From positions 53,568,001 to 53,632,000 of the forward strand of contig CM059435.1 of assembly GCA_030390025.1 (NCBI GenBank): a DNA stretch of 64,000 nucleotides, written 5' to 3'. Source of the DNA: Squalus acanthias (lineage: Eukaryota). Both the position numbers and the translations under genes were made by a program. The notes under the pieces are model-generated. The model was not told where the DNA came from. It was given only the letters and a program-made list of their open reading frames with translations, and did no database searches. Below are positions 631-46,687 of this stretch, in pieces. Every line of letters starts with the position of its first letter. The stretch's first letter is position 1.

Positions 631-1012
631 AGCCTTTCTTTCTTTCTCTCTCCCACAGAGCGGTCGGCAGCGGGGAAGGAGGAGCGGACCTGGTTGGAGC
701 GGCAGAGGCCTGAGGTGAGTCATTAAACTCACCTACGTGGCCTTTTTCCCCAGCGGGGTAAGAGCTTCGCGGGATTTTTCAAAGGCAGGGGGCGGGGCCA
801 ATTCATTGGTACCCGTATATAGGTGGAGCGGTTGCTAAACCCGAGACACTACACTAGTAGTGACTCCCACCCTCCCACCTCGTCTAACCTTTAGGGGTAG
901 AGGGAATTTAAAAGGTAGGTTCGATTTTATATTTTGTTTTCAGGGACTTAACTCCTGGACCTAAGATAAATAAGTTTAAATTTTAGTAATAAAGTAACAT
1001 AAGGGTTAAGTC

Positions 1013-1957: not shown

Positions 1958-2004
1958 TATGGCAGGGGAATGGGAACCTATGTAGCGAAACAGGGCGAAG
2001 TAAT

Positions 2005-5033: not shown

Positions 5034-6555
5034 TAACAAAGACATGGATGAGAGTTTCAGCAGCAGATGAGCTGAGGCGGAGGCAGAGTTGGTCGATGTT
5101 ACGGAGGTAGAACTAGGTGGTCTTAGTGATGGAGCGGATATGTGGTCGGCAGTTCCTTTCAGGGTCAAGTACGACACCAAGGTTGCGAACAGTCTGGTTC
5201 AGCATCAGACAATTGCCAGGGAGATGATGGAGTCAGTGGATAGGAAATGGAGTTTGTGGTGGGGACCGAAGACAACGGCTTCGGTCTTCCCAATATTTAA
5301 TTGGAAGAAATTTCTGCTCATCCGGTACTGGATGTTGGAAAAGCAGTGTGACAATTTAGAGACAGTGGAGGGGTCGAGAGAAGTAGTAGTGAGGTAGAAA
5401 GTACATGTGGAAACTGACACTATGTTTTTGGATGATGTCACCGAGGGGCAGCATGTAGAAGAGAAATAGGAGGGGGCCAAGGATAGATCCTTGGGGAACA
5501 CCAGAAGTGTCGGTGCGGGAGCGGGAAGAGAAGTCATTGCAGGTGATTCTCTGGCTACGACTGGATAGATCAGAATGGAACCAGGCGAGGGCAGGTCCCA
5601 CCCAGCTGGATAACAGAGGAGAGGCGTTGGAGGAGGATGGTGTGGTCAACAATGTCAAAGGCTGCAGACAGGTCGAGAAGGATGAGGAGGAATAGTTTAC
5701 CATTGTCATAGTCACACAGGATGTCATTTGTGACTTTGATAAGAGCCATTTCGGTACTGTGGCAGGGCGGAAACCTGATTGGAGGGATTCAAACATGAAG
5801 TTCCGGGAAAGATGGGCACAGATTTGGGAGGCGACAGCATGTTCAAGGACTTTGGAGAGGAATGTGAGAAGTAAGAAGTGTGACTTCTCACATTTGTCCA
5901 CCCCAGTCCAACACCGGCATCTCCACATTTTGGAGAGGAAAGAGAGGTTGGAGATGGGGCAGTAGTTTGCAAGGATGGAGAGATCAAGGGTTGGTTTCTG
6001 AGGAGAGGGGTAATGACGGCAGATTTGAAAGAGAGGGGGACAGTCCCTGAGGAGAGAGAACCATTAAAAATATCAGCTAACATGAGAGCCAGGAAGGGAA
6101 GTTGTGTGGTCAGCAGTTTGGTGGGAACAGGGTTGGGGGAGCAGGAGGTGGGTCTCATGGATGAGCTCGGCGAGGCCATGAGGAGAGATAGGAGAGAAAC
6201 TAGAGAAAGATGTGAGTTCAGGCTAGGGAAGGGGGGAGCCTTAGAGGAAGTTTGGCCCGGTGGGCTAAGGGAAGGGAGGGAAGTGGCAGAGGCAGTTGAA
6301 CGAATGGTCTTAATCTTAGTGACAATAAAGTCCATGAGCTCCTCGCACTTATTGTTGGAGGTGAGGGTGGAGGAGGCAGGGGCGAGGGGTTTAACAAGAT
6401 GGTTTGCAGTAGAGAAGAGAATCCGGGGATTATCTTTGCATTCCAGGATGATCCTGGAACAGTGAGCAGTTTAGGCCGAGGAGAGCAGGACCCAATAGTG
6501 CTTTATGTGGTCCAGCCAGATCTGGCGGTGAATGGCTAGATCTGGCGGTAAACCA
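5034..6555 (-). mobile_element. L2 LINE, upstream RT part (decayed)
   Basis: Frameshifted RT fragments [22 protein letters not shown] and FFQLNIGKTEAVVFG. Continues the element at 79..630. Confidence 0.85.
5863..5928 (+). mobile_element. Tiny Penelope-type 3' end insertion with a 5' hairpin
   Basis: 12-bp TSD tttggagaggaa (5851-5862 and 5929-5940). The tail tttgtccaccccagtccaacaccggcatctcc is shared with the 42225 and 44552 copies. Confidence 0.75.
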
Positions 6556-9972: not shown

Positions 9973-10133
9973 GGGGTTCATTTTGACTTGGGCGATAGGT
10001 GTAAAACGGCTGATATCGGACCAGCCGCCCATTGTGCATCTCTCCCGATTTTAATTTCCGTTAAAGTCGGGAGAAATATGCAACGGTCGGCTAATCCGCT
10101 ATCGCCTAAATCGCCAAAGTCAAAATTACCCCC
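9973..10133. mobile_element. Hairpin MITE, probably PIF/Harbinger type
   Basis: Termini ggggttcattttgactt / aagtcaaaattacccc, internal inverted symmetry, ATT on both flanks. Confidence 0.6.
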
Positions 10134-10685
10134 ATTGACATTGGACGCAGAAAGTACGTCTGCTTCCACTGTACAAATTATTCTTTTCGCATCCTCTCCT
10201 TACAGCATCAGTAATGTGCAGTCAGAGCCGACATTACATACCGTGAATTCAGACACACAGGCCTAGAAATTCGGGTTTTTAACGTCACCCGTTATCGCCA
10301 TAGTTGGGCGAAAAAATGGCAGCCACTGCTCTTCTGCCAGCGGGTCCCGCGGCGGCCGCCATTTTGGGATGGCTGGCAGCGCAGACGATAGAAGCGATCG
10401 CTCAAGGGATCACTTGATGCCCGATCTGTGACATTGGATTTTGCCACTGCACTTACCAGGATGCCTGAACAATGTTGAGAAGCAGGGAGGAGGCTGCAGC
10501 CGTGGTATTTAAAGGGATCATCAGCAAACATTTGCACCTGACATGGTTATGTAGTTTGACTGGCTCTGTGCTACTTTCTGCAACTCCACCAGCTTTACTA
10601 ACTTCTTTCAAGGTTCTAAGGTAACAGAGCGTGTTGTTGCAAGTGCAGAACCCCATCCTCATTTAAAGGCTTCTGCTCACAACAC

Positions 10686-11822
10686 TTGCTCACAGTCATG
10701 GGGGCTGTACTGGCAGTCAACCTCGCGTTCAAGGATCTTTGGCAGAGGGAGCGGAGGCAGCAAAGAAGACAGGACGATGCGCTCAGAGGGAGGAGGAGGA
10801 GGGCCATGAGGGCTCTCAACAGGAGGTCTTACCCACCTAGGCACTTCTCCTACCTCCACTTAAGTGAAGAGCAGTGCATTAGGAGGCTGTGCTTCACCAA
10901 GGAGGTGGTCACAGAACTCTGCCACCTCCTGCAACCAGACCTGCAGCCTGACAGCAGGGTGACCACGGCTCTCCCAGTGACAGTCAAGGTCACTGTGACC
11001 CTCAATTTTTTCGGCAGCAGATCCTTCCAGTCTGCAGCAGGAGATATAGCTAACATTCAGGGAGGTCACTGAGGCTCTCCACACCAGAAGGGACTACGCT
11101 TTTGTCTTCTCTCTGAGCAGAGAGAAGCAGAATGAGTGCGCATGTGGCTTTGCCAGGATAGGGGCTTCCCCATGGTGCAGGGTGCCATTGAATGCAAACA
11201 CATGGTTTTACGGGCGTCGCATAACAATCCGGAGATCTTCTGTAACCGCAAAGGCTACCAATCGCTTAATGTGCAGGTGGTGTGCGACCACGCTCAGCGA
11301 TTCCTCAATGTCCATGCCCACTATCCTAGCAGCAGCCATAATGCCTTCATCCTACGTCAGTCCGTGTGCCAGCAATCTTCCAGCCACCACAGCAAACTTG
11401 AGGGTGGTTGCTCGGAGACAAGGGTGTCCACCTGGCTCATGACTCCTCACCGCAACCCCAACACTCGTGCTCAGCACTCGTATAATGAGAGCCTTGCTTC
11501 TTCCAGGAACATCATCGAGACCATCGGCCTACTGAAGCAACGGTTCCGCTGGCTTGACCATTCGGGAGGAGCCCTCCAGTACTCAGCGGAGCGGGTGTCC
11601 CATTTCCTGGTGGTCTGCTGCATGCTTCACAACTTGGTCATCATGAGGGCACAGCCCTTGCCACCAGGGATTGTGGGACCGCCTCAGGAGGAGGACGAGG
11701 CAGAGGAGGAAGAGGACAAGGAGCAAGAGGAAAAGGAAGAGGAGGGTGGGAGGAGGCAGGCAGCCAATCCTCCTTCCGGATGGGCTGTCAGTGAATGGCT
11801 CATCAGACTCCGATTCCAATGA
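10686..11822 (+). pseudogene. Harbinger (HARBI1-like) DDE transposase, frameshifted
   Basis: Motifs ALPVTVKVTVTLNFF, GFPMVQGAIECKH, NRKGYQSLNVQVVCD, IETIGLLKQRFR and CCMLHN, then an acidic tail. Split over several frames. Confidence 0.85.
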
Positions 11823-12039
11823 ATGAAACCTCAGATCCCCATTACTCACCACATCCCCATCATACCATCCCTGTGTCACGGAATATCACACCATCCTCCT
11901 GGGCACAAAGCTGAAATGAGGACACAACAAAAGATTACAAACAAAAATTAATAAATTTATCAAAAATCATGTCACACATATTTACAGCGCAAATATGAAC
12001 TAATCACCCTTGTGCAATCCCTTAGTGCCTGTTGTTACT

Positions 12040-14144
12040 GTGCCTTTTCCTGATCTAGTGTTCCACGAAGTGCTCCCCTAGTGGCTGCAGCACGGCTGGT
12101 GGAAGGCTGCTGAGTTTCCATGAGGGGGACTTCAGATGGCCTTGCAGGGCAACCTCGAGCAGCTCTGGCCCTTGAAGGCCCAGCTGTAGACATGGGCGGC
12201 AGCAGTCTGGACTGGCTGGCTGACCAGCAGCGGCAAGGGCAATGGCGGAGTGGCAGTAGTGGGAACAGGAATGCTGTCATTCTGAGTGAGGACAGCAGGT
12301 TCCTGCTCCACTGACCCACTGCCAGTCCCCCCGGGGCGGCACCTCAGCATTCCTAGCAATCTGTTGGAGCACAGATTGCTGGGATGCTGCGACACCCTGC
12401 AAGCCCCGGTCGGCACTCGTAAACCCAGCCACGATCGCAGCAGTCAGAGCTTGGGTGGCTTCAAGCTGAGACTGCATGAGAGCAGTCTGAGCTTCGATGG
12501 CACTAAGCAGAGACTGCATGCGAGCAGTCGGAACTTCCATTGCAGCACTAAGATGTTGGGTCACTTCCGCCTGTGCTGCAATGCCCATCATGCGGTCAAG
12601 ACGGTCTCTTTGGGAGTGTACCATCATTTCCAGCGTAGAAATCCTGGGCTCCATGCTCTGCGCAGAGCCTCGTGCAATATCGGAGGCAGACTCCTCCACG
12701 CTCAACATCGCCGATATATTCCATTTGCCATGTTCTTGCCCACTCACTTAGCCTGTCTATATCCCCTTGAAGCCTCTTTGCATCCTCCTCACAACTTACA
12801 TTCCCACCCAGCTTTGTATCATCAGCAAACTTGGATATATTACATTTGGTCCTCTCATCCAAATCATTGATATAGATTGTGAATAGCTGAGGCCCAAGCA
12901 CTGATCCTTGCGGTACCCCACTAGTTACAGCCTGCCAACCCAAAAAGTACCCTTTTATTCCTACTCTCTGTTTTCTGTCTGTTAACGAATCCTCAATCCA
13001 TGCTAATATATTACCCCCAATCCCATGAGCCCTAATTTAGTTTAATAACCTCTTGTGTGGCACCTTATCGAATGCCTTCTGAAAATCCAAATACACCACA
13101 TCCACTGGTTCGCCCTTATCTATTCTGCTAGTTGCAACCTCAAAAAACTCTAACAGATTCATCAAACATGATTTCCCTTTCATAAATCCGTGTTGACTCT
13201 GCCCAATCCTATTATTTTTTAAGTGCCCTGTTACCACATCCTTAATAATAGATTCTAGCATTTTCCCTACTACTGATGTCAGGCTAACTGGTCTGTAATT
13301 CCCCGTTTTCTCTCTTCCTCCTTTCTTAAGTGGGGTTACATTTGCTACCTTCCAATCTGCAGGAAACGTTCTAGAATCTATGGAATTTTGGAAGATGACA
13401 ACCAATGCATCCACTATCTTTATAGCCACCTCTTTTAAAACCATAGGATGTAGGCCATCAGGTCTAGGGGATTTATTGGCTTTCAGTCCCATTCATTTCT
13501 CCAGTACTATATTTTTTACTAATACTAATTAGCTGGAGAACTCACTTCTCGAGCTGGCTGAGGTCCTGCGTGTCCGCCTGGCCCTGCCTGTCTGCTGCTG
13601 CTCCCTCCGATTATGGGCCAGCTTGGCCTGCAAGAGAAAGGGAAGTGTGTGAGTGAGTGCGGTGCAATGTGTTTGGATGTTGCACCTGCCATAGTTGAAT
13701 AACTGTCAGTGTGTGCATGGTGTGAGATGTGGGTGTGAGTGTTGCAGCAGTGAGGGTGAAGTGAAGCTCTGATTGTGAGGTGTGAGTGGTGATAGGTAGA
13801 GATTGTTGGTAGGTGAGTGCTGGGGGTGTGGTGCATTGAGAAATGTGTGAGGCTTGTGGTGCAGATGGTGGGATATGGCATTTGCTGAAGCCTTCACTCA
13901 CCTTGACCACCCATGTGAGGTCATTAAACTTCTTCCTGCATTGGATGGTGGACCGTGGCACCAAAGTACTCACCGTTACATGGTCGGCTATCTCCTACCA
14001 CACAGTTTGGGAGGTATACAGCGAGTGCTTTTTGCCACTTTTGGGGTAGAGTACAGCCTGCCTCCTCTCCATGGCCACAATGAGTGCCTCCAGAGCTTCA
14101 TCGGAGAACCTCCTGGCTCTCTCCCTGTTATGACAAACTGTCAT
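12040..14144 (-). pseudogene. Harbinger Myb/SANT-like DNA-binding protein gene, decayed, with an intron
   Basis: RERARRFSDEALEALI...W...RSTIQCRKKFNDL. Donor AAG|gtgagt at 13901, acceptor cttgcag| at 13628, then AKLAHNRREQQQTG. Coiled-coil segment at 12277-12715. Confidence 0.75.
12716..13531 (-). mobile_element. Internal CR1 RT fragment inside the Harbinger element
   Basis: ORFs 13037..13492 and 12596..12943 match CR1 RT. No 3'UTR or tail. Confidence 0.88.
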
Positions 14145-14762
14145 TGCTTTCGATCCACAACTCTTGCTTGTGCTTCTCCCTCTACTTGTTGGGGCGGCTG
14201 CAGTTCCAACTGCCCTGCCAATGAGGTGCTGTAGCATCAATGCACCTCCCCTTTAAGTAGTGGAAAAAGCCTGTGGCACACATGACTGCGAATTAGACTG
14301 GACCCGATATTGGTCCACCTGTTGAGCATTAAGCCAATGAGCAGCAGTTTTAGCGCTGAAATCATGACTATAATCATGTTAATGAGGAGTGAGCACGAAT
14401 TTTGTGTGCTACCTCGACCATTTTAAGGTGGCGCAGCTTAACATCGTTTGGCTGCCCATTTTGTGGCTATGTCTGATTTCTAGGCCACACTGTCCACGAT
14501 TTTCCAAACATTTTTAATGCCATTTTTCTCTTCTCCCTCCTATATAGAATACATTGGGATATTTCATACGTTAAAGGCGCTATGTAAATACAAGTTGTTG
14601 GAAAATCACAGGCAGAGCACCCCAAATTTCAGATAAGTAGTCTTGGCGGGGAAGGCTCCTCAATGGAAGTGCAAAGTTGGAACATTACTCCTGTTGTAAG
14701 AGTTTTGTTGATTAGTATAAGAATCATTAGATTAGTGTTTGACATTTGGTCTGTGAAACATC

Positions 14763-14927
14763 GGTCTAGAAATTTGTCTTCGGCGGTGGCGCTAAACGGG
14801 CGGATTTGGATCGGCCGCCCATTATACGCAACGGCTGATGTTCAGTTACACTGCAGTCAATAGAACTGAACAGCAGGCGCTGCGTACAACGGGCGGCCCA
14901 TCCATCGCCCGAGATTCATTTCTGACC
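14763..14927. mobile_element. Hairpin MITE with Harbinger-like ends
   Basis: Termini GGTCTAGAAAT / ATTTCTGACC, ATC duplication, and a long internal palindrome centred near actgcagt. Confidence 0.7.
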
Positions 14928-16504
14928 ATCATGTTTACCAGTACTTTACGATCATTAAGGCACCGATTGTTCAGCTGTGAATGACTTGTGAAAGGAGGGC
15001 TGGAATCATCACGGACAATCTCCACTGCCTTGGCACGATAAATATCATCAGAATCATGGTGATGTTCACATCACTTCCTCAGCCCTTCGCCAATATCCTC
15101 ATCCAACATTAACACTAAATCCTGACTCTGGATCACAGCCTGAACATCAGGCCTTGGTGCCAAAATTCAGTTCTTAAGCCTGGCTGTGTGAACTTGGTCC
15201 AAAGATTGGTCTAACTTATTATATTAGATGCTTATGGTTTGCCATGACAGCCAATTTAAAAACAATAGCTGTATCTTGATTCATTTTAGTCTCTTTGACA
15301 TATGATAGAAGGTGTGGAGTGTATATATTGTGATACACAAGGTATCGCTATTGTGTGGGACAGGCTGGATGGACTAGAGGGTCTTTACCTGTCCGTCACT
15401 GTTCGTATGTTCAGCTAAGACAAATCTTCACGGTGGTTACAATCTCTGTCAGCTTTTGACAGCCTCTACATGTGATTGGAAACAAATGTTAGAGTGCTGA
15501 AATGGTACCGTGACAACAATGAAGCATTTTGTCTGAGATTTTGATTTCTTTAATTTTGTCATTGTACATTAGTGGTTAAAAACCAGCTTCACTGACCAAA
15601 ATCACACCCCCGTGTGGAAGTGCAGTTTTTGTCTCGGACAAAATGGCTTCCTTGAATTTAAACTGATATAAAATGGCCGACTTTGACTTGTTTGGAAAGC
15701 AAAGAAAAATCCATTGCTATGTTTTTCGTGAAAATAAATTTAAAGTTTTAGACTACGCTGTCAGCAAAAGTCTGCCAACACAAAAGAAAACAGGCTTAAA
15801 TTGAGATAACCAAGGGCTAGTAAAGTAAACATCCAGGGTCTTGGTCTTGGTGACAAAAGAACAAGACAGATAGACTCCATTTTCTAGGGATTAGTTAGTT
15901 TCACCGTAAGGCATTTCTTATGTGTTTTTTTTTTAATTTTTAACTTAGCTTACCTTAAACAACATGTCATGTGATTGTATTATCAGTGTCTAAGAATACT
16001 CCATTTTCTGTTTTTTGGCAGTCTGTCATCATAGCTAATTGGGCTATGGTTGCAGTCTCCTTGCAAGTAAAATATAATAAACAGCCTTCTTTGACGATAT
16101 TGTTTTAAGAGTCTTACTCGGAAGTCAAAACTTCGACACCCGCCCAACTGGATACAATCCTCGCAACAATGAGTCAGTTTGTCTGATGGAGGAGCCAAGC
16201 CATTCTATTCAAATACAAACATCTTTTGGGAGTTGTTCAAATATGTTTTTGATTCACAATCTTTAAAAAAAAATGAACAGAAAGTTATTTAAGTGAACTT
16301 GGTCCAGGTCATTATTTTGGAAAGTATTTATCAGCCTGTCTTTTTTAAATCAGTGAGTCTATCTGTGGCCTTCTAAGAGAGATAATAAAGCCAGGTAGCT
16401 TCTGTAAATACAAAAAGAAAATACTGCAGATTCTGGAAATCTGAAAAACAGAAAATGTTGGAGATACTCAGCAGGTCAGGCAGCATTTGTGAAGAGAGAA
16501 ACAG

Positions 16505-16541
16505 AGTTAACATTTCAGGTCGATGACCTTTCGTCAGAACT
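16505..16541 (-). ncRNA. Minimal hammerhead ribozyme motif (Penelope-associated)
   Basis: agtt-CTGACGA-a-aggtc/gacct stem-GAAA-tg-tt-aact on the minus strand. Confidence 0.6.
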
Positions 16542-18140
16542 GGAAAAAAGCAGGAAATGGAACAGATTTTTAAGCAAGTGTAGGAGCTGGGAAAGGGGGG
16601 AGGGGATGAAAGAACAAAAGGGAAAGTCTGTGATAGGATAGAAGGCAGGAGAGGTTAAGAGACATTAAGAGATATTCAAGGCAAAAGGAGATGGTAATGG
16701 GACAGGTTAAGAAACAAAAGATGGCTCTAGATGAAGTGAAATTGCGCTGGCAGAATGAAAGACAGCTGCCATGTGGGAGAGAAGAAAAGAAAACACAAAC
16801 AAAAAAAAAGTGTGGAAAAATATATATATGATAGGGGCAGAGGTTATGATCTGAAATTGTTGAACTCTATGTTGAGTCCAGAAGGCTGTAAAGTGCCTAA
16901 TTGAAAGATGAGGTGCTGTTCCTCGAGCTTACGTTGAGCTTCAGTGGAACAGTGTAATAGGCCGAGGACAGTGAGGTCTGAGTGGGAGTGGAGCGGAGAA
17001 TTAAAGTGACAGGTGACCGGAAGCTTGGGGTCCCCCTTAAGGACTGAACGGAGGTGTTCCGCAAAGCGGTCACCCAATCTGTGTTTGGTCTCCCCAATGT
17101 AGAGGAGACCGCATCGTGAGCAGCGAATACAGTATACTAAATTGCAAGAAGTACAAGTAAATCGCTGTTTCACCTGGAAGGGGTATTTGGGGCCCTGGAC
17201 AGTGGGAAGGGGGGAGGTATAAGGGCATGTGTTGCATCTCCTGCGCTTGCACGGGAAGGTGCCGGGCGAAGGGGAAGGGGTGTTGGGGGTGATAGAGGAG
17301 TGGGCCAGGGTGTCACGGAGGGAGCGGTCCCTTTGGAATGCTGAAAGGGGAGGTGAGGGGAAGATGTGTTTGGTGGTGGGATCACGCTGGAGGTGGCGGA
17401 AATGGCAGAGGATGATCCGTTGAATGTGGAGGCTGGTGGGCTGAAAGGTGAGGACAAGGGGAACCCTATTGTGGTTCCAGGAGGGAGGGGCAGGGATGAG
17501 GGCAGAAGTGTGGGAGATAGAACGGACACAGTCAAGGGCCGTGTCAACCACAGTAGAGGGGAATCCTCGGTTGAGGAAATAGGAAGACATGTCGGAAGCG
17601 CTGGTATGGAAGGTGGCATCGTCAGAGCAGATGCGGGGGAGACGGAGAAACTGGGAGAATGGAATAGCATCCTTACAGGAAGCGGGGTGTGAGGAAGTGT
17701 AGTCCAGGTAGCTGTGGGAATCAGTGGGCTTGTAGTGAATGTTTGTCAATAACCTATCCCCAGAGATGGAGACGGAGAAGTCGAGGAAGGGAAGGGAAGA
17801 GTCGGAGATGGACCATGTGAAGGTGAGGGAAGGGTGGAAATTGGAAGCAAAGTGAATGAAATTTTCTAGTTCAGGACGAGAGCAGGAAACGGCACTGATA
17901 CAGTCATCAATGTACCGGAAAAAGAGGTGAGGGAGGGGACCTGAGTAGGATTGGTACAAAGAATATTTCCACATATCCCACGAAAAGGCAGGCATAGCTA
18001 GGGCCCATGCGGGTCCCCATAGCAACACCCTTAATTTGGAGGAAGTGAGTGGAGTCAAAGGAGAAGTTGTTCAATGTGAGAACAAGTTCAGCCAGGCGGA
18101 GGAGGGCTGTGGTGGATGGGGACTGGTTGGGCCTTTGTTC

Positions 18141-19158
18141 TGTGACTGGAAGCCTGTGTCCAGTGGTGTACCGCAGGGATCGGTGCTGGGTCCCTTGCTG
18201 TTTGTAGTGTACATTAATGATTTAGATATGAATGTAGGAGGTATGATCAGTAAGTTCGCAGATGACACGAAAATTGGTGGAGTGGTAAATAGCGAGGAGG
18301 GAAGCCTCAGGCTACAGGACGATATAGACGGGTTGGTCAGATGGGCAGAACAGTGGCAAATGGAATTTAACCCTGAAAAGTGTGAGGTGATGCATTTTGG
18401 GAGGACTAACAAGGCAAGGGAATACACAATGAATGGTAGGACCCTAGGAAGGACAGAGGATCAGAGGGACCTTGGTGTGCATGTACATAGATCCCTGAAG
18501 GCAGCAGGACAGGTAGATAAGGTGGTTAAAAAGGCATATGGGATACTTGCCTTCATTAGCCGAGGCATAGAATATAAGAGCAGGGAGGTTATGATGGAGC
18601 TGTACAAAATGCTAGTTAGGCCACAGCTGGAATACTGTGTGCAGTTTTGGTCGCCACACTCTAGGAAGGATGTGATTGCATTGGAGAGGGTGCAGAGGAG
18701 ATTCACCAGGATGTTACCTGGTCTGGAGCACTTCAGCTATGAAGAGAGACTGGACAGGCTGGGGTTGTTTTCCTTAGAGCAGAGAAGGCTGAGGGGGGAC
18801 CTGATTGAGGTGTACAAAATTATGAGGGGCGTAGATAGAAAGCAACTTTTCCCCTTAGTAGAGGGGTCAATAACCAGGGGGCATAGTTTCAAGGTAAGGG
18901 GCAGGAGGTTTAGAGGGGATTTGAGGAAAAACTTTTTCACCCAGAGGGTGGTTGGAATCTGGAACTCACTGCCTGAAAGGGTGGTAGAGGCAGGAACCCT
19001 CACAACATTCAAGAAGCATTTAGATGAGCACTTGAAACACCATAGCATACAAGGCTACGGACCAAGTGCTGGAAAATGGGATTAGAATAGACAGGGCTTG
19101 ATGGCCGCGCAGACACGATGGGCCGAAGGGCCTCTTTCTGTACTGTATAACTCTATGG
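18141..19158 (+). mobile_element. 5'-truncated CR1 LINE inserted in the Penelope element
   Basis: RT C-terminal half ([14 protein letters not shown]) and a 3'UTR ending ctgtataactctatg. Confidence 0.9.
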
Positions 19159-19345
19159 CTCAAGGAAGAAGTGGAGCGCCCTCAGGCCATCCTGGTGGGG
19201 GATGGAGGTGTAGAGGGATTGTACGTCCATAGTGAAAATGGTGAGAGAAGGAGAAGAATAACTACATAAGAATATTACTTATATCATAGTTTAACACAGC
19301 AGTTGCAAGCTATTTATTATTTTCTACTACAAAAGGAGCTAGCTA

Positions 19346-21350
19346 AGAACATACATAAGAACATAAGATGTAGGAGCAGGAGTAGGTCATTTGGCCCCTT
19401 GAGCCTGCTCCGCCATTCAATAAGATCATGGCTGATCTGATCTTGGCCTCAACTCTGCTTCCCTGCCCGCTCCCCATAACCCTTGATTCCCTTATCGTTC
19501 AAAAATCTGTCTATCTCCACCTTAAATATATTCAATGACTCAGCCTCCACTGCTCGCTGGGGAAGAGAATTCCAAAGATTCTCGACCCTCTGAGAGAAGA
19601 AATTCCTCCTAATTTCCATTTTAAATGGGTGCCCCCTTATTCTGAAATTATGCCCCCTAGTTCTAGATTCCCCCACGAGGGGAAACATCCTCTCTGCATC
19701 TACCCTGTCAAGCCCCTTCAGAACCTTATATGTTTCAATAAGATCCCCTCTCATTCTTCTAAACTCCAATGAGTATAGGCCCAACCTGCTCAACCTTTCT
19801 TCATAAGACAACCCCTTCATCTCCGGTATCAACCTTGTTAACCTTCTCTGAACTGCCTCCAATGCAAGTATATCCTTCCTTAAATAAGGAGACCAAAACT
19901 GTACGCTGTACTCCAGGTGTGGTCTCACCAACGCCCTGTACAGTTGTAACAGGACTTCCCTACTTTTATACTCCATTCCCTTTGCAATAAAGGCCAACAC
20001 TCCATTTGCCTTCCTAATTACTTGCTGTACCTGCATGCTAACTTTTTGTGATTCATGTACAAGGACCCTCAGATCCCTCTGTACCTCAGCATATTGTAAT
20101 CTCTCCCCATTTAAATAATAATTTGCTTTTTTATTCTTCCTACCAAAGTGGATAACCTCGCATTTTCCCACATTAAACTCCATCTGCCAGATTTTTGCCC
20201 ATTCACTTAGCCTATCTATATCCCTTTGGAGATTCTTTGCGTCCTCCACACAATTTGCTTTCCCACCTATCTTTGTATCATCAGCAAATTTGGCTACATT
20301 ACACTCGGTCCCTTCATCCAAGTCATTAATATAGATTGTAAATAGTTGAGGCCCCAGCACTGATCCCTGCGGCACCCCACTAGTTACAGTTTGCCAACCT
20401 GAAAATGACCCATTTATCCCGACTCTCTGTTTTCTGTTAGTTAGCCAATCCTCTATCCTTGCTAATATATTACCCCCAACCCCGTGAGCTCTTATCTTTT
20501 GCAGTAACCTTTTATGTGGCACCTTATCGAATGCCTTCTGGAAATCCAAATACCCGACATCTACTGGTTCCCCTTTATCTACCCTACTCGTTACATCCTC
20601 AAAGAACTCCAGCAAATTTGTCAAACATGATTTCCCTTTCATAAAACCATGCTGACTCTGCTTGACTATATTATGATTTTCTAAATGTCCTGCTATCACT
20701 TCCTTAATGATGGACTCCAGCATTTTCCCAATGACAAATGTTAGGCTAACTGGTCTATAGTTGCCTGCTTTCTGTCTCCCTCCTTTCTTAAACAGGGGCG
20801 TTACATTTGCGGTTTTCCAGTCCGCTGGAACCTCTCCAGAATCCAGGGAATTTTGGTAGATTACAACCAATGCATCCACTATCTCTGCAGCCACCTCTTT
20901 TAAGACCCTAGGATGCAGGCCATCGGGTCCAGGGGACTTGTCCACCTTTAGTCCCATTAGTTTGCCGGGTACTTTTTCTCTAGTGATAGTGATTGTTTTA
21001 AGTCCCCCCCCCCCCACCCCAATAGCCCCTTTATTATCCATTATTGGGATGTTTTTAGTGTCTTCTACTGTGAAGACTGATACAAAATATTTGTTCAAAG
21101 TCTCTGCCATTTCCCTGTTTCCATTTATTAATTCCCCAGACTCATCCTCTAGGGGCCGAATGTTTACTTTAGCTACTCTCTTCCTTTTTATATACCTGTA
21201 GAAGCTCTTACTGTCTGTTTTTATATTTCTTGCTAGCTTACTCTCATAAGCTATCTTCTCTCTCTTTATCATTTTTTTAGTCGTCCTTTGCTGGTTTTTA
21301 AAAATTTCCCAATCCTCTGGCCTTCCACTATTCTTCACAACATTGTAAGC
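19346..21350 (-). mobile_element. 5'-truncated CR1 LINE with open RT frame
   Basis: Uninterrupted 629-aa ORF 19449..21338 and a 3' tail (tcttatgt)n. Confidence 0.92.
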
Positions 21351-22336: not shown

Positions 22337-22534
22337 TCTTGGGTTTATTTGCATTAAACTCTCAGATAGGTAAAGCCATCCTTCTTCGCCAGGTCACACT
22401 TTCACCTAGCTGATCCAGTTTACTCTTGAATTTATTGCTACATATACATTACGAGCAGTTTTAATATTCTCTACATCCATAAGTTTCATTGAATGATTGC
22501 TGTCAGCATGTAACCCAATTCTAGAAACTTGGAA

Positions 22535-25322
22535 CAACAACAGAAAATGCTGGAAACACTCAGCAGGTCAGGCAGCATCGTGGAGAGAGAAACAGAGTTA
22601 ACGTTTCAGGTCGATGATCCTTCGTCAGAACTGGAAAAAGTTGGAGAAGTAACAGATTTTAAGCAAGTGTGGGACAGGGAAAGCGGGGGGAGGAAAGAAC
22701 AAAAGGGGCGGTCTGTGATAAGGTGAAAGGCAGGAGTGGTTAAAAGACAAAAGGGATGATGGTACAAGGCAAATGGAGATGGTAATGGGACAAGTTAAGA
22801 AACAAAAGATGACTCTAGATGAGGTGTAAATGACAATAGCAGAATCATCAACAGCTGCCATGTGAGAGAGAAAAGAAAACATGGGGGCCGAGGTTATAGT
22901 CTGAAATTGTTGAACTCGATGTTGAGTCCAGAAGGCTGTAAAGTGCCTAATCGAAAGATGAGGTGCTGTTCCTCGGCTTACATTGAGCTTCATTGGAACA
23001 GTGTAAGAGGCCGAGGACGGTGAGGTCTGAGTGGGAGTGGAGCGGAGAATTAAAGTGACAGGCGACCGGAGGCTCGGGGTCACACTTATGGACTGAATGG
23101 AGGTGTTCCGCAAAGCGGTCACCCAATCTGTGTTTGGTCTCCCCAATGTAGAGGAGACCGCATCGTGAGCAGCGAATACAGTATACTAAATTGCAAGAAG
23201 TACAAGTAAATCGCTGTTTCACCTGGAAGGAGTGTTTGGGTCCCTGGATAGTGGGAAGCTAGGAGGTGAAAGGGCATGTGTTGCATCTCCTGCGCTTGCA
23301 CGGGAAGGTGCCGTGGGAAGGTGAAGGGGTTTTAGAGGAGTGGACCAGGGTGTTGCGGAGGGAGCGGTCCCTTCAGAATGTTGAAAGGGGAGGGGAGGGG
23401 AAGATGTGTTTGGTGGTGGGATCATGCTGGAGGTGGAGGAAATGGAGGAGGATGATCCGTTGAATGTAGAGGCTAGTGGGGTGAAAGGTGAGGACAAGGG
23501 GAACCCTATCGTGGTTCTGGGAGGGAGGGGAAGGGGTGAGAGCAGAAATACGGGAAATGGAACGGACACAGTCGAGGGCCATGTCAACCATGGTAGAGGG
23601 GAATCCTCGATTGAGGAAAAAGGAAGACATATCGGAAGCACTAGTATGGAAGGTGGCATCGTCAGAACAGATGCGGCGGAGACGCAGAAACTGGGAGAAT
23701 GGAATAGAGTCCTTACAGGGAGCGGGGTGGGAGGATGTGTAGTCCAGGCAGCTGTGGGAGTCAGTGGGCCTATAGTGGATATTTGTCGATAGCCTATCCT
23801 CAGAAATGGAGACAGAGAAGTCGAGGAAGGGAAGGGAAGAGTTGGAGATGGACCATGTGAAGGTGAGGGAAGGGTGAAAATTGGAAGCAAAGTGAATGAA
23901 ATTTTCTAGTTCAGGGTGAGAGCAGGAAACGGCACCGATACAGTCATCAATGTACTGGAAAAAGAGGTGAGGGAGGGGACCTGAGTAGGACTGGAACAAA
24001 GAGTGTTCCACATATCCCACGAAAAGGCAGGCATAGCTAGGGCCCATGCGGGTCCCCATAGCAACACCTTTAATTTGGAGGAAGTGAGTGGAGTCAAAGG
24101 AGAAGTTGTTCAATGTGAGAACAATTCAGCCAGGCGGAGGAAAGCTGTGGTGGATGTGGACTGTTGGGCCTCTGTTCAAGGAAGAAGTGGAGCGCCCTCA
24201 GGCCATCCTGGTGGGGGATGGAGGTGTAGAGGGATTGGACGTCCATAGTGAAAAGGAGACGGTTGGGGCCAGGAAACTGGAAACTGTTAAAGTGGCGGAG
24301 GGCATCAGATGAGTCGCGAATGTAGGTGGGAAGAGACTGGGCAAGGGGAGAAAAAATAGAGTCGAGATAGGAAGAAATCAGTTCCGTGGGGCAAGAACAG
24401 GCTGAAACGATGGGTCTACCAGGGCAGCCCTGTTTGTGGATCTTGGGAAGGAGGTAGAAGCGGGCTGTGCGGGTTTGGGGAACTATGAGGTTGGAGGCCA
24501 TGGAGGGAAGATCTCCAGAGGAGATGAGGTCAGTGACAGTCTTGGAAACAATGGCTTGATGTTTGGTAGTGGGGTCATGGTCCAGGGGGAGGTAGGAGGA
24601 GGTGTCGGGGAGTTGGCATTCAGCCTCCGCACGGTAGAGGTTGGTTTGCCAAACAACAACAGCACCACCCTTGTCAGCAGGTTTAATGACAATGTTAGGG
24701 TTGGATCGAAGAGAACGGAATGCTGAAAGTTCAGAAGGAGGTAGGTTGGAGTGAGCAGAGAAATTGAGACGGCTGATGTCACGCCGGCAGTTAGCAATGA
24801 AAAGATCAAGAGAGGGTAAGAGGCCAGAGGGAGGGGTCCAGGTAGAACGAGAATTCTGAAAGCGGGACAAAGGGGGGGAAGACTCCTGGCCAAAGAAGTG
24901 GGCATGGAGATTGAAGGCAACGGCAAAAGAGCTCGGCATCATGCCAAGCTTGAAATTCATTGAGATGGGGGCATAAGGGGATGAAGCTCAGACCTTTGCT
25001 GAGGACTGATCGTTTGGGGTCAGAGAGGGGAAGGTCAGAGGGGATAGTGAAAATACGGCAGGGGGTGAGATTGGAAGAAGGGATGGGGTCAGAGGAAAGT
25101 GAAGGGGAAGAAGGTTCTGGATGGGTGTTGGTGTCCAAGAGTTGTTGAAGCTTGTGATCCTTGACATCTGAAAGGAAGAAAAAAAGTTTTTTGTTGAAGC
25201 GTCGGATGAGGCGAAGAATGAAATGGAACTGTGGACCAGGACAGCTTTGAGCGTCAGTGCTGCTGAAGAGAGAGGTCGAGAGTGTTCATGTGGCGACGCA
25301 TCTTTAAACTTGGTGATGCTTT
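22535..25322 (-). mobile_element. Penelope-like element, near full length, frameshifted
   Basis: DKG motif (IKPADKGGAVVV), LPKIHK..PGRPIVS, MDVQSLYTSIPH, GVAMG, QYIDD and a GIY-YIG domain, spread over several frames. Confidence 0.9.
22596..22632 (-). ncRNA. Minimal hammerhead ribozyme motif
   Basis: agtt-CTGACGA-stem II (imperfect)-GAAA-cg-tt-aact on the minus strand. Confidence 0.6.
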
Positions 25323-32270: not shown

Positions 32271-32375
32271 CCAGAGGTTGAGAAAGAATGGCATGATATA
32301 CAGAAATAATTATCTGGTTAACGTTACAAGTCCAGAACTCTGCAGGAAGTTCACTAGGGTCAACTGTTTTTTTCC

Positions 32376-32412
32376 AGTTCTGATGAAAGGTCTTCGACCT
32401 GAAACGTTAACT
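32376..32412 (+). ncRNA. Minimal hammerhead ribozyme motif in a Penelope 3' fragment (32370-32506)
   Basis: agtt-CTGATGA-a-aggtc ttc gacct-GAAA-cg-tt-aact. The flanking sequence matches the ends of the Penelope elements at 16405 and 22535. Confidence 0.65.
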
Positions 32413-32506
32413 CTGTTTCTCTCTCCACAGATGCTGCCTGACCTGCTGAGTATTTCCAGCATTTTCTGTTTTTATTTCAGATTTCCAGCATCCACAGTAT
32501 TTTGCT

Positions 32507-40627: not shown

Positions 40628-42556
40628 ACACTGACCCTGGGCCGTGAGGGATATGACAGTGACTGACCCCGGGCCGTGTGGGATATGATAGTGACTGACC
40701 CTGGGCCGTGTGGGATATGACAGTGACTGACCCTGGGCCGTGTGGGATATGACAGTGACTGACCCCGGGCCGTGAGGGATATGACAGTGACTGACCCCGG
40801 GCCGTGTGGGATATGACAGTGACTGACCCTGGGCCGTGTGGGATATGACAGTGACTGACCCTGGGCCGTGTGGGATATGATAGTGACTGACCCTGGGCCA
40901 TGTGGGATGTGATAGTGACTGACCCTGGGCTGTGTGGGATATGATAGTGACTGACCCTGGGCTGTGTGGGATATGATGGTGACTGACCCTGGGCCATGTG
41001 GGATGTGATAGTGACTGACTCTGGGCCGTGTGGGATATGACAGTGACTGACCCTGGGCCGTGTGGGATGTGATAGTGACTGACCCTGGGCTGTGTGGGAT
41101 ATGACAGTGACTGACCCTGGGCCGTGTGGGATAAGATGGTGACTGACCCCGGGCTGTGTGGGATAAGATGGTGACTGACCCTGGGCCGTGTGGGATATGA
41201 CAGTGACTGACCCCGGGCTGTGTGGGATATGATAGTGACTGACCCTGGGCCATGTGGGATATGACAGTGACTGACCCTGGGCTGTGTGGGATATGACAGT
41301 GACTGACCTTGGGCCGTGTGGGATATGATAGTGACTGACCCCGGGCTGTGTGGGATATGATAGTGACTGACCCTGGGCTGTGTGGGATATGATGGTGACT
41401 GACCCTGGGCCGTGTGGGATATGACAGTGACTGACCCCGGGCTGTGTGGGATATGATAGTGACTGACCCTGGGCTGTGTGGGATATGATGGTGACTGACC
41501 CTGGGCCGTGTGGGATATGATAGTGACTGACCCTGGGCCGTGTGGGATATGACAGTGACTGACCCCGGGCTGTGTGGGATATGATAGTGACTGACCCTGG
41601 GCCGCGTGTGATATGACAGTGACTGACCCTAGGCCGTGTGGGATATGACAGTGACTGACCCCGGGCCGTGTGGGATATGATAGTGACTGACCCTGGGCCA
41701 TGTGGGATATGATAGTGACTGACCCTGGGCCGTGTGTGATATGATAGTGACTGACCCTGGGCCGTGTGGGATATGATAGTGACTGACCCTGGGCCGTGTG
41801 TGATATGACAGTGACTGACCCTGGGCCGTGTGGGATATGATAGTGACTGACCCTGGGCCGTGTGGGATATGACAGTGACTGACCCCGGGCCGTGTGGGAT
41901 ATGATAGTGACTGACCCTGGGCCATGTGGGATATGATAGTGACTGACCCTGGGCCATGTGGGATATGATAGTGACTGACCCTGGGCCGTGTGGGATATGA
42001 CAGTGACTGACCCCGGGCCGTGTGGGATATGATAGTGACTGACCCTGGGCCGTGTGGGATATGACAGTGACTGACCCTGGGCTGTGTGGGATATGACAGT
42101 GACTGACCCTGGGCCGTGTGGGATATGACAGTGACTGACCCTGGGCTGTGTGGGATATGATGGTGACTGACCCCGGGCTGTGTGGGATATGATAGTGACT
42201 GACCCTGGGCCATGTGGGATATGATGCGGAGATGCCGGTGTTGGACTGGGGTGGACAAAATTGAGAGGTCACACAACACCAGGTTATAGTCCAACCGTTT
42301 TATTTGAAATCACAAGCTTTCGGAGCTATCGATAGCTCCGAAAGCTTGTGATTTCAAATAAAACTGTTGGACTATAACCTGGTGTTGTGTGACCTCTCAA
42401 TCATGTGGGATATGACAGTGACTGACCCCGGGCCGCGTGTGATATGACAGTGACTGACCCCTGGCTGTGTGGGATGTGATCATGACTGACCCTGGGCCAT
42501 GTGGGATATGACAGTGACTGACCCCGGGCTGTGTGGGATATGATGGTGACTGACCT
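40628..42556. repeat. 32-bp minisatellite (gtgactgaccctgggccgtgtgggatatgaca)n
   Basis: Direct tandem repeats, interrupted at 42225-42401, ending about 26 nt before exon 3. Confidence 0.95.
42225..42401 (-). mobile_element. Penelope-type fold-back insertion with a 142-bp palindrome
   Basis: Palindrome 42260-42401 centred on gctatc|gatagc, plus a 35-nt unpaired tail. Flanked by catgtgggatatga on both sides. Confidence 0.8.
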
Positions 42557-42582: not shown

Positions 42583-42692
42583 GTATTTCCAGGCAGGAGG
42601 CTCTCCAGAACATGTGATCCAGATGCTATCTGAGAATTATACAGCAGTAGCACAGACTGTAAACCTGTTAGCAGAGTGGCTGATTCAGACAG
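42583..42692 (+). CDS. NELFCD: NELFCD exon 3
   Basis: cccag|(R)[36 protein letters not shown](G)|gtaaca. 110 nt. Confidence 0.96.
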
Positions 42693-43355
42693 GTAACACA
42701 TGGCCAGCACTGGGTAAACTGGTAAAGCTGAAAAATACAAATTGAACACGTCTTTGATGTATTGAGGATAACTCGCTGATCTTTTCTTGTGGAGGGAATC
42801 AGATCCTTTCCGCTGGGTGTCTCTGAGAGCGCGGTGGAGTGCCTGCGACTTGGCCTGGGCCCTGATGCTCTCAGCAGCTGCCGCCCATGTTTTAGGAGGG
42901 GTTCAGGCTCAGCCCTCCTCTGATTTTCTCTCTCCATCACAGTGGGAATTAAAAGTTGTGAGGGTGATGCTACCACCCCCGGTTGCTGTGGCACCTTTGT
43001 TGGCGTTTCAATGTGATTCCCCCCTTGGTAACACACCGACAGTGATGGGTTATGTGCTTCCTTAATGGGGAGTCTCGGTCTTCGATGATAAGTGCCAGAT
43101 TCAGTTGTCTCAGTGACATTGTTAATTTGGTGTAATTTCTTCATTGGACCCGAGTTTAAATTATGGTAGGTTAAGTTATTAACGTATTGTGTAATTTTAA
43201 TAAAAGGCTACACCTGAGGCATTTACCAATCCCTTTCTCTTTCAGACACTGTTCAATCTGTTGTGCATTTATTGCATTTTCTGTTATTATTTCTGGTGTA
43301 ATTATGTTGCGCAAGGTTCTTTCCTTGGAGCTAATTGGGTTGTGTTATGTCTGTG

Positions 43356-43762
43356 GGACCCGTCTGTCTGATTGGGTTGTGTCTACAGAGACCGTCTGTC
43401 TGATTGGGTTGTGTCTACAGAGACCGTCTGTCTGATTGGGTTGTGTCTACAGAGACCGTCTGTCTGATTGGGTTGTGTCTACAGAGACCGTCTGTCTGAT
43501 TGGGTTGTGTCTACAGAGACCGTCTGTCTGATTGGGTTGTGTCTACAGAGACCGTCTGTCTGATTGGGTTGTGTCTACAGAGACCGTCTGTCTGATTGGG
43601 TTGTGTCTACAGAGACCGTCTGTCTGATTGGGTTGTGTCTACAGAGACCGTCTGTCTGATTGGGTTGTGTCTACAGAGACCGTCTGTCTGATTGGGTTGT
43701 GTCTACAGAGACCGTCTGTCTGATTGGGTTGTGTCTACAGAGACCGTCTGTCTGATTGGGTT
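43356..43762. repeat. 32-bp minisatellite (gaccgtctgtctgattgggttgtgtctacaga)n
   Basis: About 12 essentially identical units. Confidence 0.95.
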
Positions 43763-44551
43763 CATAGAATCATACAGCGCAAAAGGAGGCCATTTGGCCT
43801 ATTGTGTCTGTGCCGGCTCTTTGAAAGAGCTCTCCAATTAGTCCCACTCCCCTGCTCTTTTCCCCATAGCCCTGCAAATTTTTCCCCTTCAAGTATTTTA
43901 TCCAATTCCCTTTTGAAAGTTACTATTGAATCTGCTTACACCGCCCGACAGGCCGTGCATTCCAGATCATAACCACTCGCTGCGTAAATGTTTTTTTTCC
44001 CCCTCATGTCGCCTCTGGTTCTTTTACCAATCACCTTAAACCTGTGTCCTCTGGTTATCGACCCTTCTGCCACTGGAACCAGTTTCTCCTTAACTACTCT
44101 ATCAAACAGTTCATGATTTTGAACACCTCTATCAAATCTCCTTTTAACTTTCTCTGCTCTAAGGAAAACAACCCCAGATTCTCCAGTCTCTCCACATAAC
44201 TGAAGTCCCTCATCCCTGGTAAATGTCCCCTGCACCCTCTCTAAGGTCTTGACATCCTTCCTAAAGTGTGCTGCCTAGAATTTGACACAATACTCCAGCT
44301 GGGGCCTAATCAGTGATTTATAACGGTTTAACATAACTTCCTTGCTTTTGTACTCGATGCCTCTATTTATAAAGCCAAGGATCCCATATGCTTTTTTTAA
44401 CAGGCTTTTTAACCTGTCCTACCACCTTCCAACATTTGTGTATGTACACTCTCTGTTCCTGCACCCCCTTTAAAATTTAGTTTATATTGCCTCTCCTCAT
44501 TCTTCCGACAAAAATACATCACTTCACACTTCTCTGTGTTAAATTTCATTT

Positions 44552-45228
44552 TGCGGAGATGCCGGTGTTGGACTGGGGTGGACAAAATTGAGAGGTCGCA
44601 CAACACCAGGTTATAGTCCAACAGTTTTATTTGAAATCACAAGCTTTCGGAGCTATCGATTGCCCCTTCCTCAGGTGAAGTAAATAGATACAGAATCGCC
44701 AAAGCATATATAGATAGAGAACAAAGCATGTGTACCTTACAATTGCAGACCACTAAATTAAATCATCCTGACTATCTGCCGAGGTGTGATAAAGTTAATC
44801 AGGTCAGCCAGGAAGGTACCACATCAAAGACATAGCAAGATACAACTGAGACAATGAGGTGTAGTCGCAGGGGTTCTAACGTGTCAAAAGCTGCCGTCTG
44901 TATGTAAAACGTTTTACATACAGACGGCAGCTTTTGACACGTTAGAACCTCTGCGACTACACCTCATTGTCTCAGTTGTATCTTGCTATGTCTTTGATGT
45001 GGTACCTTCCTGGCTGACCTGATTAACTTTATCACACCTCGGCAGATAGTCAGGATGATTTAATTTAGTGGTCTGCAATTGTAAGGTACACATGCTTTGT
45101 TCTCTATCTATATATGCTTTGGCGATTCTGTATCTATTTACTTCACCTGAGGAAGGGGCAATCGATAGCTCCGAAAGCTTGTGATTTCAAATAAAACTGT
45201 TGGACTATAACCTGGTGTTGTGCGACCT
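44552..45228 (-). mobile_element. Penelope-type fold-back insertion with a 636-bp palindrome
   Basis: Palindrome 44593-45228 centred on aaaac|gtttt, plus a 41-nt unpaired tail. 13-bp TSD ttaaatttcattt (44539-44551 and 45229-45241). Confidence 0.85.
45142..45184 (+). ncRNA. Minimal hammerhead ribozyme motif (mirror copy on - at 44637-44679)
   Basis: tcac-CTGAGGA-a-ggggc/gctcc stem-GAAA-gc-tt-gtga. Confidence 0.65.
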
Positions 45229-45584
45229 TTAAATTTCATTTGCCATGTGTTTGCCTAATTCACCAGTCTGTCTATGTCCTCCTGAAGTCTGTTACTATCC
45301 TCCTCACTGTTTGCTACATTTCTGAGTTGCGTATCATCTGCAAACTTTAGAATTATGCCCCGTATACCCAAGTCCAGGTCAATTAATACATTAATATATA
45401 TCAAAAAGAGCAGTGGTCCCAACACCGACCCTGAGGGACACCACTGTATACTTGTCTCCAGTCTGAAAAACAACTGTTACCACTACTCTCTGCTTTCTGT
45501 TTCTTAGCCAATTTTGGATCAATGGGCTGCAATTTTGCAAACAAGTTTATTATGTGGTACTTTAATAAACCCCTTATGAAAGTT

Positions 45585-45992
45585 GGACCCTTCTGTCTGA
45601 TTTGGCTGTGTCTGTAGGACCCTGCCGTCTGATTGGGCTGTCCCTGTAGGGCTCTTCTCTCTGTAGGGCTCTTCTGTCTGATTAGGCTGTGTCTGATTGG
45701 GCTGTGTCTGGAGGGCTCTTCTGTCTGATTGGGCTGTGTCTGGCGGGCTCTTCTGTCTGATTGGGCTGTGTCTGGAGGGCTCTTCTGTCTGATTGGGCTG
45801 TGTCTGGAGGGCTCTTCGGTCTGATTGGGCTGTGTCTGGAGGGCTCTTCTGTCTGATTGGGCTGTGTCTGGAGGGCTCTTCTGTCTGATTGGGCTGTGTC
45901 TGGAGGGCTCTTCTCTCTGATTGGGCTGTGTCTGGAGGGCTCTTCTGTCTGATTGGGCTGTCCCTGCAGGTCCCTTCTGTCTGTAGGACCCT
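45585..45992. repeat. 32-bp minisatellite (ctgattgggctgtgtctggagggctcttctgt)n
   Basis: Direct tandem repeats related to the 43356 array. Confidence 0.9.
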
Positions 45993-46577
45993 TTCCTGGG
46001 GCCTTGGTAGGTTGAGTCATGGGGACCTATGGGTTCTATTCACCCTCCTGTACCTCATCCAAGTGGCCGTTCTTTATGTGCAGGCCCTAATGGTGAATGT
46101 TAACAGGCTAATTTACTGTAAGGGGGCAAAATAGCCCAGGCCAATCTCATTCTCATCTGATGCACATATATGCACTTTCCAGCAGGAGTCACTAAATAGT
46201 GATCAGTACTCAGGACCCTAACTAATTTTTACCCTCCTTAACCCATGGGAGGGAGGGGGAAGAGAGATCCACTATCATCCCTCTGAGCTATGGGTGAAGC
46301 TAGTTGAGTTGTGCTGTGCCCTTGCATCCTTGTGTCTGGCTGGCTGGCCTGGATTGTGACGTCCAAGTCCTTGGGTCTGGTTGAGTTGGGTTGCTTCACC
46401 ACCCCCCCAATCCCCAATCCCACGTCCTTGGATTTTGGTGAACTGGGCTTTGGCTCTCAACTCCTTATATCTGGCTGCGTTGAGTTGTGTTGCCCAAGTT
46501 TGGTTGGGTTGTACAGGCCCATATACCTGTTCTATTTGTCTGAAATCTGTTGCAGTTTGTGCCTTTTTCCTTCTCAG

Positions 46578-46687
46578 GGGTGGAACCATCACATGTTCAG
46601 GAGACTGTTGAAAACCATTTGAAGAGTTTGCTGATTAAACACTTTGATCCTCGGAAAGCTGATTCCATTTTCACAGAGGAGGGGGAG
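46578..46687 (+). CDS. NELFCD: NELFCD exon 4
   Basis: ctcag|(G)[36 protein letters not shown]|gtaatg. 110 nt. Confidence 0.96.

Follow-up and report, generated by a model that had tools for sequence, protein, structure and literature searches.

Why do copies of Penelope-like elements (PLEs) lie head to head, and why do they carry a tail on one side only? We analyzed a window of 64,000 nucleotides from Squalus acanthias (GenBank assembly GCA_030390025.1, contig CM059435.1, positions 53,568,001 to 53,632,000 of the forward strand; coordinates below count from its first letter). A palindromic insertion in this window has clean joints, which bear on the question and also on the second-strand step that the first in vitro study of a PLE left open. 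By itself a single insertion matters little, being a copy without a gene and of published design: head-to-head pLTRs, a palindromic junction, a one-sided tail, a TSD and a minimal hammerhead are all PLE features already described. Its family, very abundant and little decayed, makes the second-strand question one that can be counted in an assembly.

Structure of the insertion

The initial annotation described 318-bp arms with one mismatch, no spacer and a 13-bp TSD, and each of these points was recovered (Table 1). The sole mismatch sets 44871 G opposite 44950 T, not a single nucleotide intervenes at the centre, and TTAAATTTCATTT stands on both sides of the insert at a length of exactly 13 bp. 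The 636 bp given there are the length of the palindrome; the insert measures 677 bp, because 41 bp at the left end have no mirror on the right. Spacerless arms of this kind are far longer than those in mononucleotide shuffles of the window, where the longest was 6-9 bp in ten of ten cases. The hammerhead reported for each arm is also present, as a minimal type I motif and its mirror. From the hammerhead core the arm extends 236 nt upstream, beyond the TATA-like box. The insert has no ORF and encodes nothing; we regard it as a passive copy, of which the likely effect is a long hairpin within an intron.

Table 1. Positions in the window of the insertion, its host site and two further copies of the family
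Feature	Position	Strand	Basis or remark
Sibling insertion, related subfamily	5862..5928		tail about 35 nt, 11-nt inverted arms, 10-nt centre
Sibling insertion	42225..42401		35-nt tail, 71-bp arms, 1 mismatch, spacerless
NELFCD (TH1) exon upstream of host intron	42583..42692	+	PF04858
Decayed, older CR1-like LINE piece (RT and 3' region) that the insert interrupts	43850..45620	-	flank alignment, Pfam
Left TSD copy, 92% A+T	44539..44551		sequence comparison
41-nt tail, 3' extension of the element, left side only	44552..44592	-	end common to the 42.2-kb copy
Left arm, 5'-truncated pLTR-type segment	44593..44910	-	element sense on minus strand
Mirror hammerhead, antisense in NELFCD pre-mRNA	44637..44678	-	motif scan, core at 44674
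TATA-like box of left arm, pointing outward; putative pLTR promoter	44706..44712	-	analogy with pLTR TATA boxes of PMC3846280 and the PAc template of PMC11167929
Palindrome centre, C then G	44910..44911		family sequence keeps G, then diverges
Right arm, inverted copy without tail	44911..45228	+	element sense on plus strand
TATA-like box TATATAT of right arm	45109..45115	+	sequence; 31 nt upstream of hammerhead core
Minimal type I hammerhead	45143..45184	+	motif scan; predicted cut after 45180
Right TSD copy, 13 bp	45229..45241		sequence comparison
NELFCD (TH1) exon downstream of host intron	46578..46687	+	PF04858

Host site

An insertion into an older LINE inside NELFCD had been proposed, and both parts of this location stand. 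When the insert and one TSD copy are removed, the flanks align across the site with LINE copies elsewhere in the window: the rejoined sequence matches positions 63787-63664 over 124 nt without a gap (73%) and also aligns to the RT region of three LINE ORFs, the LINE resuming in register. Pfam RVT_1 was found in all three of these ORFs and an APE endonuclease in one. The split LINE, which we take to be a CR1, shows many listed differences from its family majority in contigs of public runs. Two related 32-bp minisatellite arrays, at 43345-43790 and 45650-45985, flank the LINE fragment.

Splice sites place the insert within the intron at 42693-46577. Five TH1/NELFCD exons were identified on the plus strand through PF04858, which matched five of the 298 stop-free frames scanned (out of 767 candidate frames, and covering 34.4-59.2 kb).

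Assignment to Penelope-like elements

Very probably the insert derives from the end of an endonuclease-bearing PLE with a Poseidon-like layout: a 5'-truncated piece without coding sequence, comprising pLTR and tail, that integrated head to head in one event. The Penelope assignment of the initial annotation is supported, on stronger grounds than that annotation could give, namely by the one-sided tail, the two 3' end sites, the Poseidon-like spacing and the variable centres of the sibling copies. As no parent ORF was found, membership is argued from four non-coding features, and the link to Poseidon purely from layout.

For the Adineta vaga elements Pen2a, Pen2 and Pen3a, PMC3846280 describes inverted pLTRs lying head to head with palindromes at the junction, a 31-bp tail at one end, a TSD of 8-10 bp and a TATA box in the pLTR; PMC8557442 gives the same general scheme for insertion units of endonuclease-positive PLEs. 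Our insert is alike in its head-to-head 5'-truncated segments, its junction palindrome, a tail in the range of 30-40 nt at one end, a TSD of variable length and a TATA-like box in the pLTR. Differences are that no ORF lies between the arms, that arms of 318 bp meet without a spacer, and that the TSD is 13 bp against 8-10 bp.

The layout also follows PAc, which is a Poseidon element from the anole Anolis carolinensis (PMC11167929). In a comparison by eye with the published template, not an alignment, both share in the same order a TATA-like box, a CUGAGGA core, one unpaired base, a stem II of 5-6 bp, an 8-nt loop, GAAA with a 4-nt palindrome, an AC-rich end and two end sites one tail length apart. 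The distance from the core to the tail end is 123 nt here, and reverse transcription of PAc starts 117-124 nt from its CUGAGGA core, that is, 111-118 nt into the ORF. The PAc ORF begins with an AUG inside the hammerhead; at that position the insert reads AAG.

Like the non-LTR retrozymes (bioRxiv 10.64898/2026.07.22.740005), the insert is built from a unit, here of 359 bp, that bears a hammerhead, does not code and is tied to PLE pLTRs. Retrozymes form head-to-tail tandems, whereas here a single pair of units lies head to head, and neither the locus nor the window showed a direct repeat of the unit. The average of 363 bp in the sole cartilaginous fish sampled in that study was dropped as a unit length: family sequence extends beyond the centre in the upstream direction, and 359 bp therefore marks a truncation point and is not a demonstrated unit length.

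In the search for a parent RT/GIY-YIG ORF, the insert gave no match to the ORFs of the window itself. Scanning for a 20-nt pattern from the tail returned nothing in viral contigs and one match in metagenome contigs, which we rejected as a chance 20-mer in unrelated G+C-rich DNA. A protein search with a 40-residue frame through the tail of a sibling gave two candidates, none at E<=1, which is weak evidence. The window does contain a second PLE-like family, at 16400-18070 (-), 22500-25300 (-) and 32364-32503 (+), with RT-region ORFs, a weak GIY-YIG match (E 0.0013) and minimal hammerheads of its own (cores at 16537, 22628 and 32380). It shares no sequence with the insert and was rejected as the parent.

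Family abundance and end sites

The left half of the locus (43900-44935) was compared with the contigs of four of the 22 listed public runs (X1, X2, X7 and X18). The listing names no RNA run. X18 is a run under another organism label; it holds near-identical pieces in 339 records, which is not to be read as evidence of sharing between species. The family of the insert is plainly very abundant: its summed contig depth in X1 runs from 3e5 to 6e6, a figure that is not a copy number; contigs specific to the flanks have depths of 16.6 in X1 and 6 in the other run that passes the centre (0 differences).

Just past the palindrome centre the depth falls from 353,259 to 17 in X1, from 424,389 to 41 in X2 and to 0 in the other two runs; in X1 and X2 about 1 in 10,000-20,000 of the family's depth is left. 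The mirror is therefore absent from the family consensus, and at this centre it is a property of this locus or of few loci. One X18 record ends at 44911, and an X7 loose end (3 records) continues behind 44911 with unrelated letters. As the family diverges at this point, the parent has only a 2-nt CG self-complement there.

The ends of the element are seen in contig joints, of which a selected 15 out of 250 are listed (short sides of 20-39 letters, 90% likeness). Twelve of the 15 connect LINE sequence to the element end, five at 44552-44555 and seven at 44582-44589, and none of the twelve falls between these clusters. They form two end sites 30-37 nt apart. The other three are internal deletions. 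No empty allele was present among the matches listed from the run contigs, beyond which there are 1,682 further loose ends and 235 further joints.

Three further observations come from the same contigs. Eleven of the 15 listed joints of this family (250 in all) involve an A+T-rich spot of the LINE at 44367-44375, which looks like an insertion hotspot within the LINE. Around 44670-44690 the family depth is several-fold higher 3' than 5' of the hammerhead in all four runs; either many copies have their start close to the motif, or it is upstream of the motif that subfamilies diverge. Finally, a loose end of X7 upstream of the centre shows a stop codon followed by letters that resemble the printed ORF-pLTR junction of PAc. 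The stop codon of the parent may thus precede the palindrome centre by about 10 nt, although with 3 records and a likeness of 10 nt this could be chance.

Sibling copies in the window

Two more copies of the family, at 42.2 kb and 5.9 kb, had been missed by the initial annotation (Table 1). The centre of the 42.2-kb sibling, between 42330 and 42331, is a 6-nt self-complement (ATCGAT) in hammerhead loop II; its TSD of 10-14 bp lies within a tandem repeat, and its tail has the same end as that of the main copy. The 5.9-kb sibling has a TSD of 11-12 bp and a centre that reads as a 6-bp stem with a 3-nt loop, plus a short duplication.

Head-to-head inversion within a TSD is found in all three window copies, with centres at three different places and with the tail on one side each time (41, 35 and about 35 nt). 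The inverted arms stop at the equivalents of 44593, 44587 and 44586-44587. Target A+T fractions are 0.92, 0.57 and 0.55, so that one target of the three is A+T-rich. The equivalent of 44598 differs between the two long palindromes, and within each of them both arms agree.

The 42.2-kb sibling ends 181 bp upstream of the NELFCD exon starting at 42583 and, together with the main copy, brackets that exon. The two could pair across it; each should prefer its own hairpin.

Origin of the head-to-head structure

We consider double target-primed reverse transcription the most likely mechanism, a judgment that we hold with moderate confidence. The protein of the element would nick both strands of an A+T-rich target 13 nt apart and leave 3' overhangs. 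The top-strand end would prime a cDNA from the outer start site, at the tail end, and the bottom-strand end would prime another from the inner start site, which lies 41 nt upstream of the outer one. The two cDNAs, being of the same sense, could be joined head to head only, pairing at self-complementary sequence. This joining of the two cDNAs to each other, which we infer, would run through the 2-nt CG self-complement in the main copy and through 6 nt in the 42.2-kb sibling. Fill-in would then produce the order TSD, tail, arm, mirror arm, TSD. Since the arm passes the TATA-like box, reverse transcription probably used a read-through RNA, made from a tandem or full-length copy, as its template.

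What we observe is the anatomy, together with both end sites, centres that vary between copies, and short self-complements. Both 3' ends of the element face outward and each abuts one copy of the TSD, as is expected under double priming. The PAc protein cleaves and extends both target strands and prefers A+T-rich DNA, as in the target of the main copy; its reverse transcription begins at two sites, one on either side of the tail (PMC11167929). As the PAc start site does not differ between strands, the pattern of one tail on one side is not forced by these data. The 42.2-kb sibling has its centre on one of only six among 349 unit positions with a self-complement of at least 3 bp. At the centre of the main copy the self-complement is 2 nt (1 bp); 21% of positions reach this, so it is common and alone gives no support for annealing. 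Also against double priming, the two sibling targets are not A+T-rich, and the hairpin with duplication at the 5.9-kb centre fits a fold-back as well or better.

Such a fold-back is the rival that survives best, though we consider it rather unlikely. A single cDNA would fold back at its 3' end on a micro-hairpin, copy itself, stop before the protein-bound tail and be joined by microhomology to the target end on the far side; perhaps a non-templated base would be added before folding. The stem and loop at the 5.9-kb centre are what it predicts, and it agrees with variants that are common to both arms of each palindrome. Nonetheless two of the three centres have no spacer. Folding through the natural stem II would moreover retain the parental loop TATCGATT, whereas the 42.2-kb sibling has the mirrored TATCGATA. 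Microhomology can be pointed to, as the start of the TSD matches the next 8 letters of the element at six of 8 positions (TTAAATTT versus CTCAATTT), yet two mismatches fall among the three letters next to the junction, and the microhomology is thus not at the primer end. A fold-back also needs a separate reason why the arm reaches no further than the second of the two end sites, at which other copies are joined to their targets; double priming places this limit at the inner start site.

A different proposal, made for head-to-head palindromic junctions in PMC3846280 (Arkhipova et al. 2013), is that self-priming on an antisense transcript of the element builds the inverted repeat before integration. 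The TATA-like box TATATAT, readable on both strands, would suit an antisense transcript. PAc, however, takes sense RNA in vitro and extends both target strands, leaving second-strand synthesis open (PMC11167929). The model by itself also does not place the outer ends at two start sites of reverse transcription, and we consider it improbable.

Long palindromes are known to trouble assemblers, and the run-contig matches listed include no record of the whole junction. Even so, it is very improbable that the palindrome is a fold-back artefact of the assembly or the library, or that it arose by inverted duplication after the insertion. Both arms lie inside the TSD, the LINE continues in register beyond them, the arms differ at one site and a sibling has the same design. 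Two DNA runs from two studies pass the centre, at depths of 17 and 41, although chimeric reads are possible and either X1 or X2 may be the source sample. Least probable is a TIR DNA element (MITE or Foldback type) whose palindromic body would be fixed: long inverted arms and a TSD would suit it, but it failed on three defining features, as a 41-nt tail separates arm and TSD on one side, TSD lengths (13, 10-14 and 11-12 bp) and centres vary, and the family depth collapses past this centre.

Double priming has a counterpart in the twin priming of LINE-1, in which the 3' ends of both target strands prime cDNA and a 5' inversion results inside one TSD. There the cDNAs come from different parts of one RNA and a poly(A) tail is present, which the insert does not have. 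The two cDNAs of the insert would cover the same part of the RNA, and therefore, unlike in LINE-1, a palindrome would result.

More tentatively, and with rather more doubt than for this locus, we suggest that head-to-head PLE insertions in general consist of two same-sense target-primed cDNAs, one per strand and start site, joined at self-complementary micro-sites. A literature search limited to open-licence papers returned no double-priming model for PLEs. If it is true, then tail, inversion, palindromic junction and TSD are explained in one step, and the antisense self-priming model would be replaced. Near-perfect palindromes without a spacer would further be very numerous in this genome; each would carry a pair of pLTR promoters facing outward and, when intronic, would be a long double-stranded RNA.

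Hammerhead motif and predicted RNA folding

The motif at 45143-45184 has a stem I of TCAC/GTGA, the core CTGAGGA, one unpaired A, a stem II of GGGGC/GCTCC with an 8-nt loop, GAAA, and a palindromic AGCT in the place of helix III. Rfam gave no match at the gathering threshold on the whole window, the hammerheads remaining undetected, and on 44900-45260 returned one unrelated match (E 0.88) and no hammerhead. Variants of the family support the structure. At 44664 a C>T change, present at about a third of the X1 depth, turns a G.U pair into A-U, and an X2 loose end behind 44653 has another N7 and a 3-nt loop II with core and stem retained.

Metazoan PLEs carry minimal hammerheads of this kind in opposite-strand pairs 100-700 bp apart (PMC4209133), a range that includes the 473 bp from core to core in the insert. 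Both also share the absence of a true helix III, a palindromic 15.2-16.2, G10.1-C11.1, an unpaired base 5' of stem II and a stem I of 4 bp. Stem II is 5 bp here, as read from sequence, against 7-8 bp in the Schistosoma set.

The initial annotation expected a duplex of more than 300 bp in NELFCD pre-mRNA that would sequester the ribozyme and make the insertion potentially self-silencing. Folding predictions agree with the duplex and with the burial of the hammerhead: RNA of the plus-strand insert is predicted at -630 kcal/mol, with a stem II probability of about 4e-26. If the RNA instead begins shortly before the motif, the predicted probabilities are about 0.6 for stem II and about 0 for stem I; an RNA begun at the TATA-like box would be without the complementary arm. 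Self-silencing is not supported, because any transcript has one motif in ribozyme sense, the motif is of the minimal type and the copy is without an ORF. In NELFCD pre-mRNA the right-arm motif alone is in sense; it lacks a dimer partner and sits in a copy without coding capacity, so its burial is of little consequence. Nor does self-silencing follow in view of published data: single minimal hammerheads showed no cleavage in vitro (PMC4209133), and hammerhead cleavage was dispensable for insertion in vitro (PMC11167929). Places with A>G numbered 7, 8, 7 and 8 in the four runs, counts that are uninformative for this locus as the contigs pool the whole family.

Age and other elements in the window

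The insertion had been called very recent and its family active. The data confirm its youth relative to the LINE host, but they do not show that it is very recent or its family active. Across the 662 sites compared in arms and TSD there is one change, which corresponds to 2.2 million generations (95% range 0.05-12 million) at the mutation rate of 7e-10 per generation reported for the epaulette shark (PMC10587355), an estimate that fails either way if the change is an RT error or if conversion acts between the arms. In a slowly mutating vertebrate, low divergence is no proof of current activity.

Elsewhere in the window, a CR1-like LINE at 1010-4941 (+) has frames of 315 aa and 1002 aa (APE plus RT) and is apparently intact, and decayed frames of a DDE_Tnp_4 (Harbinger-type) transposase lie at 10620-11822 (+; E 3e-21).
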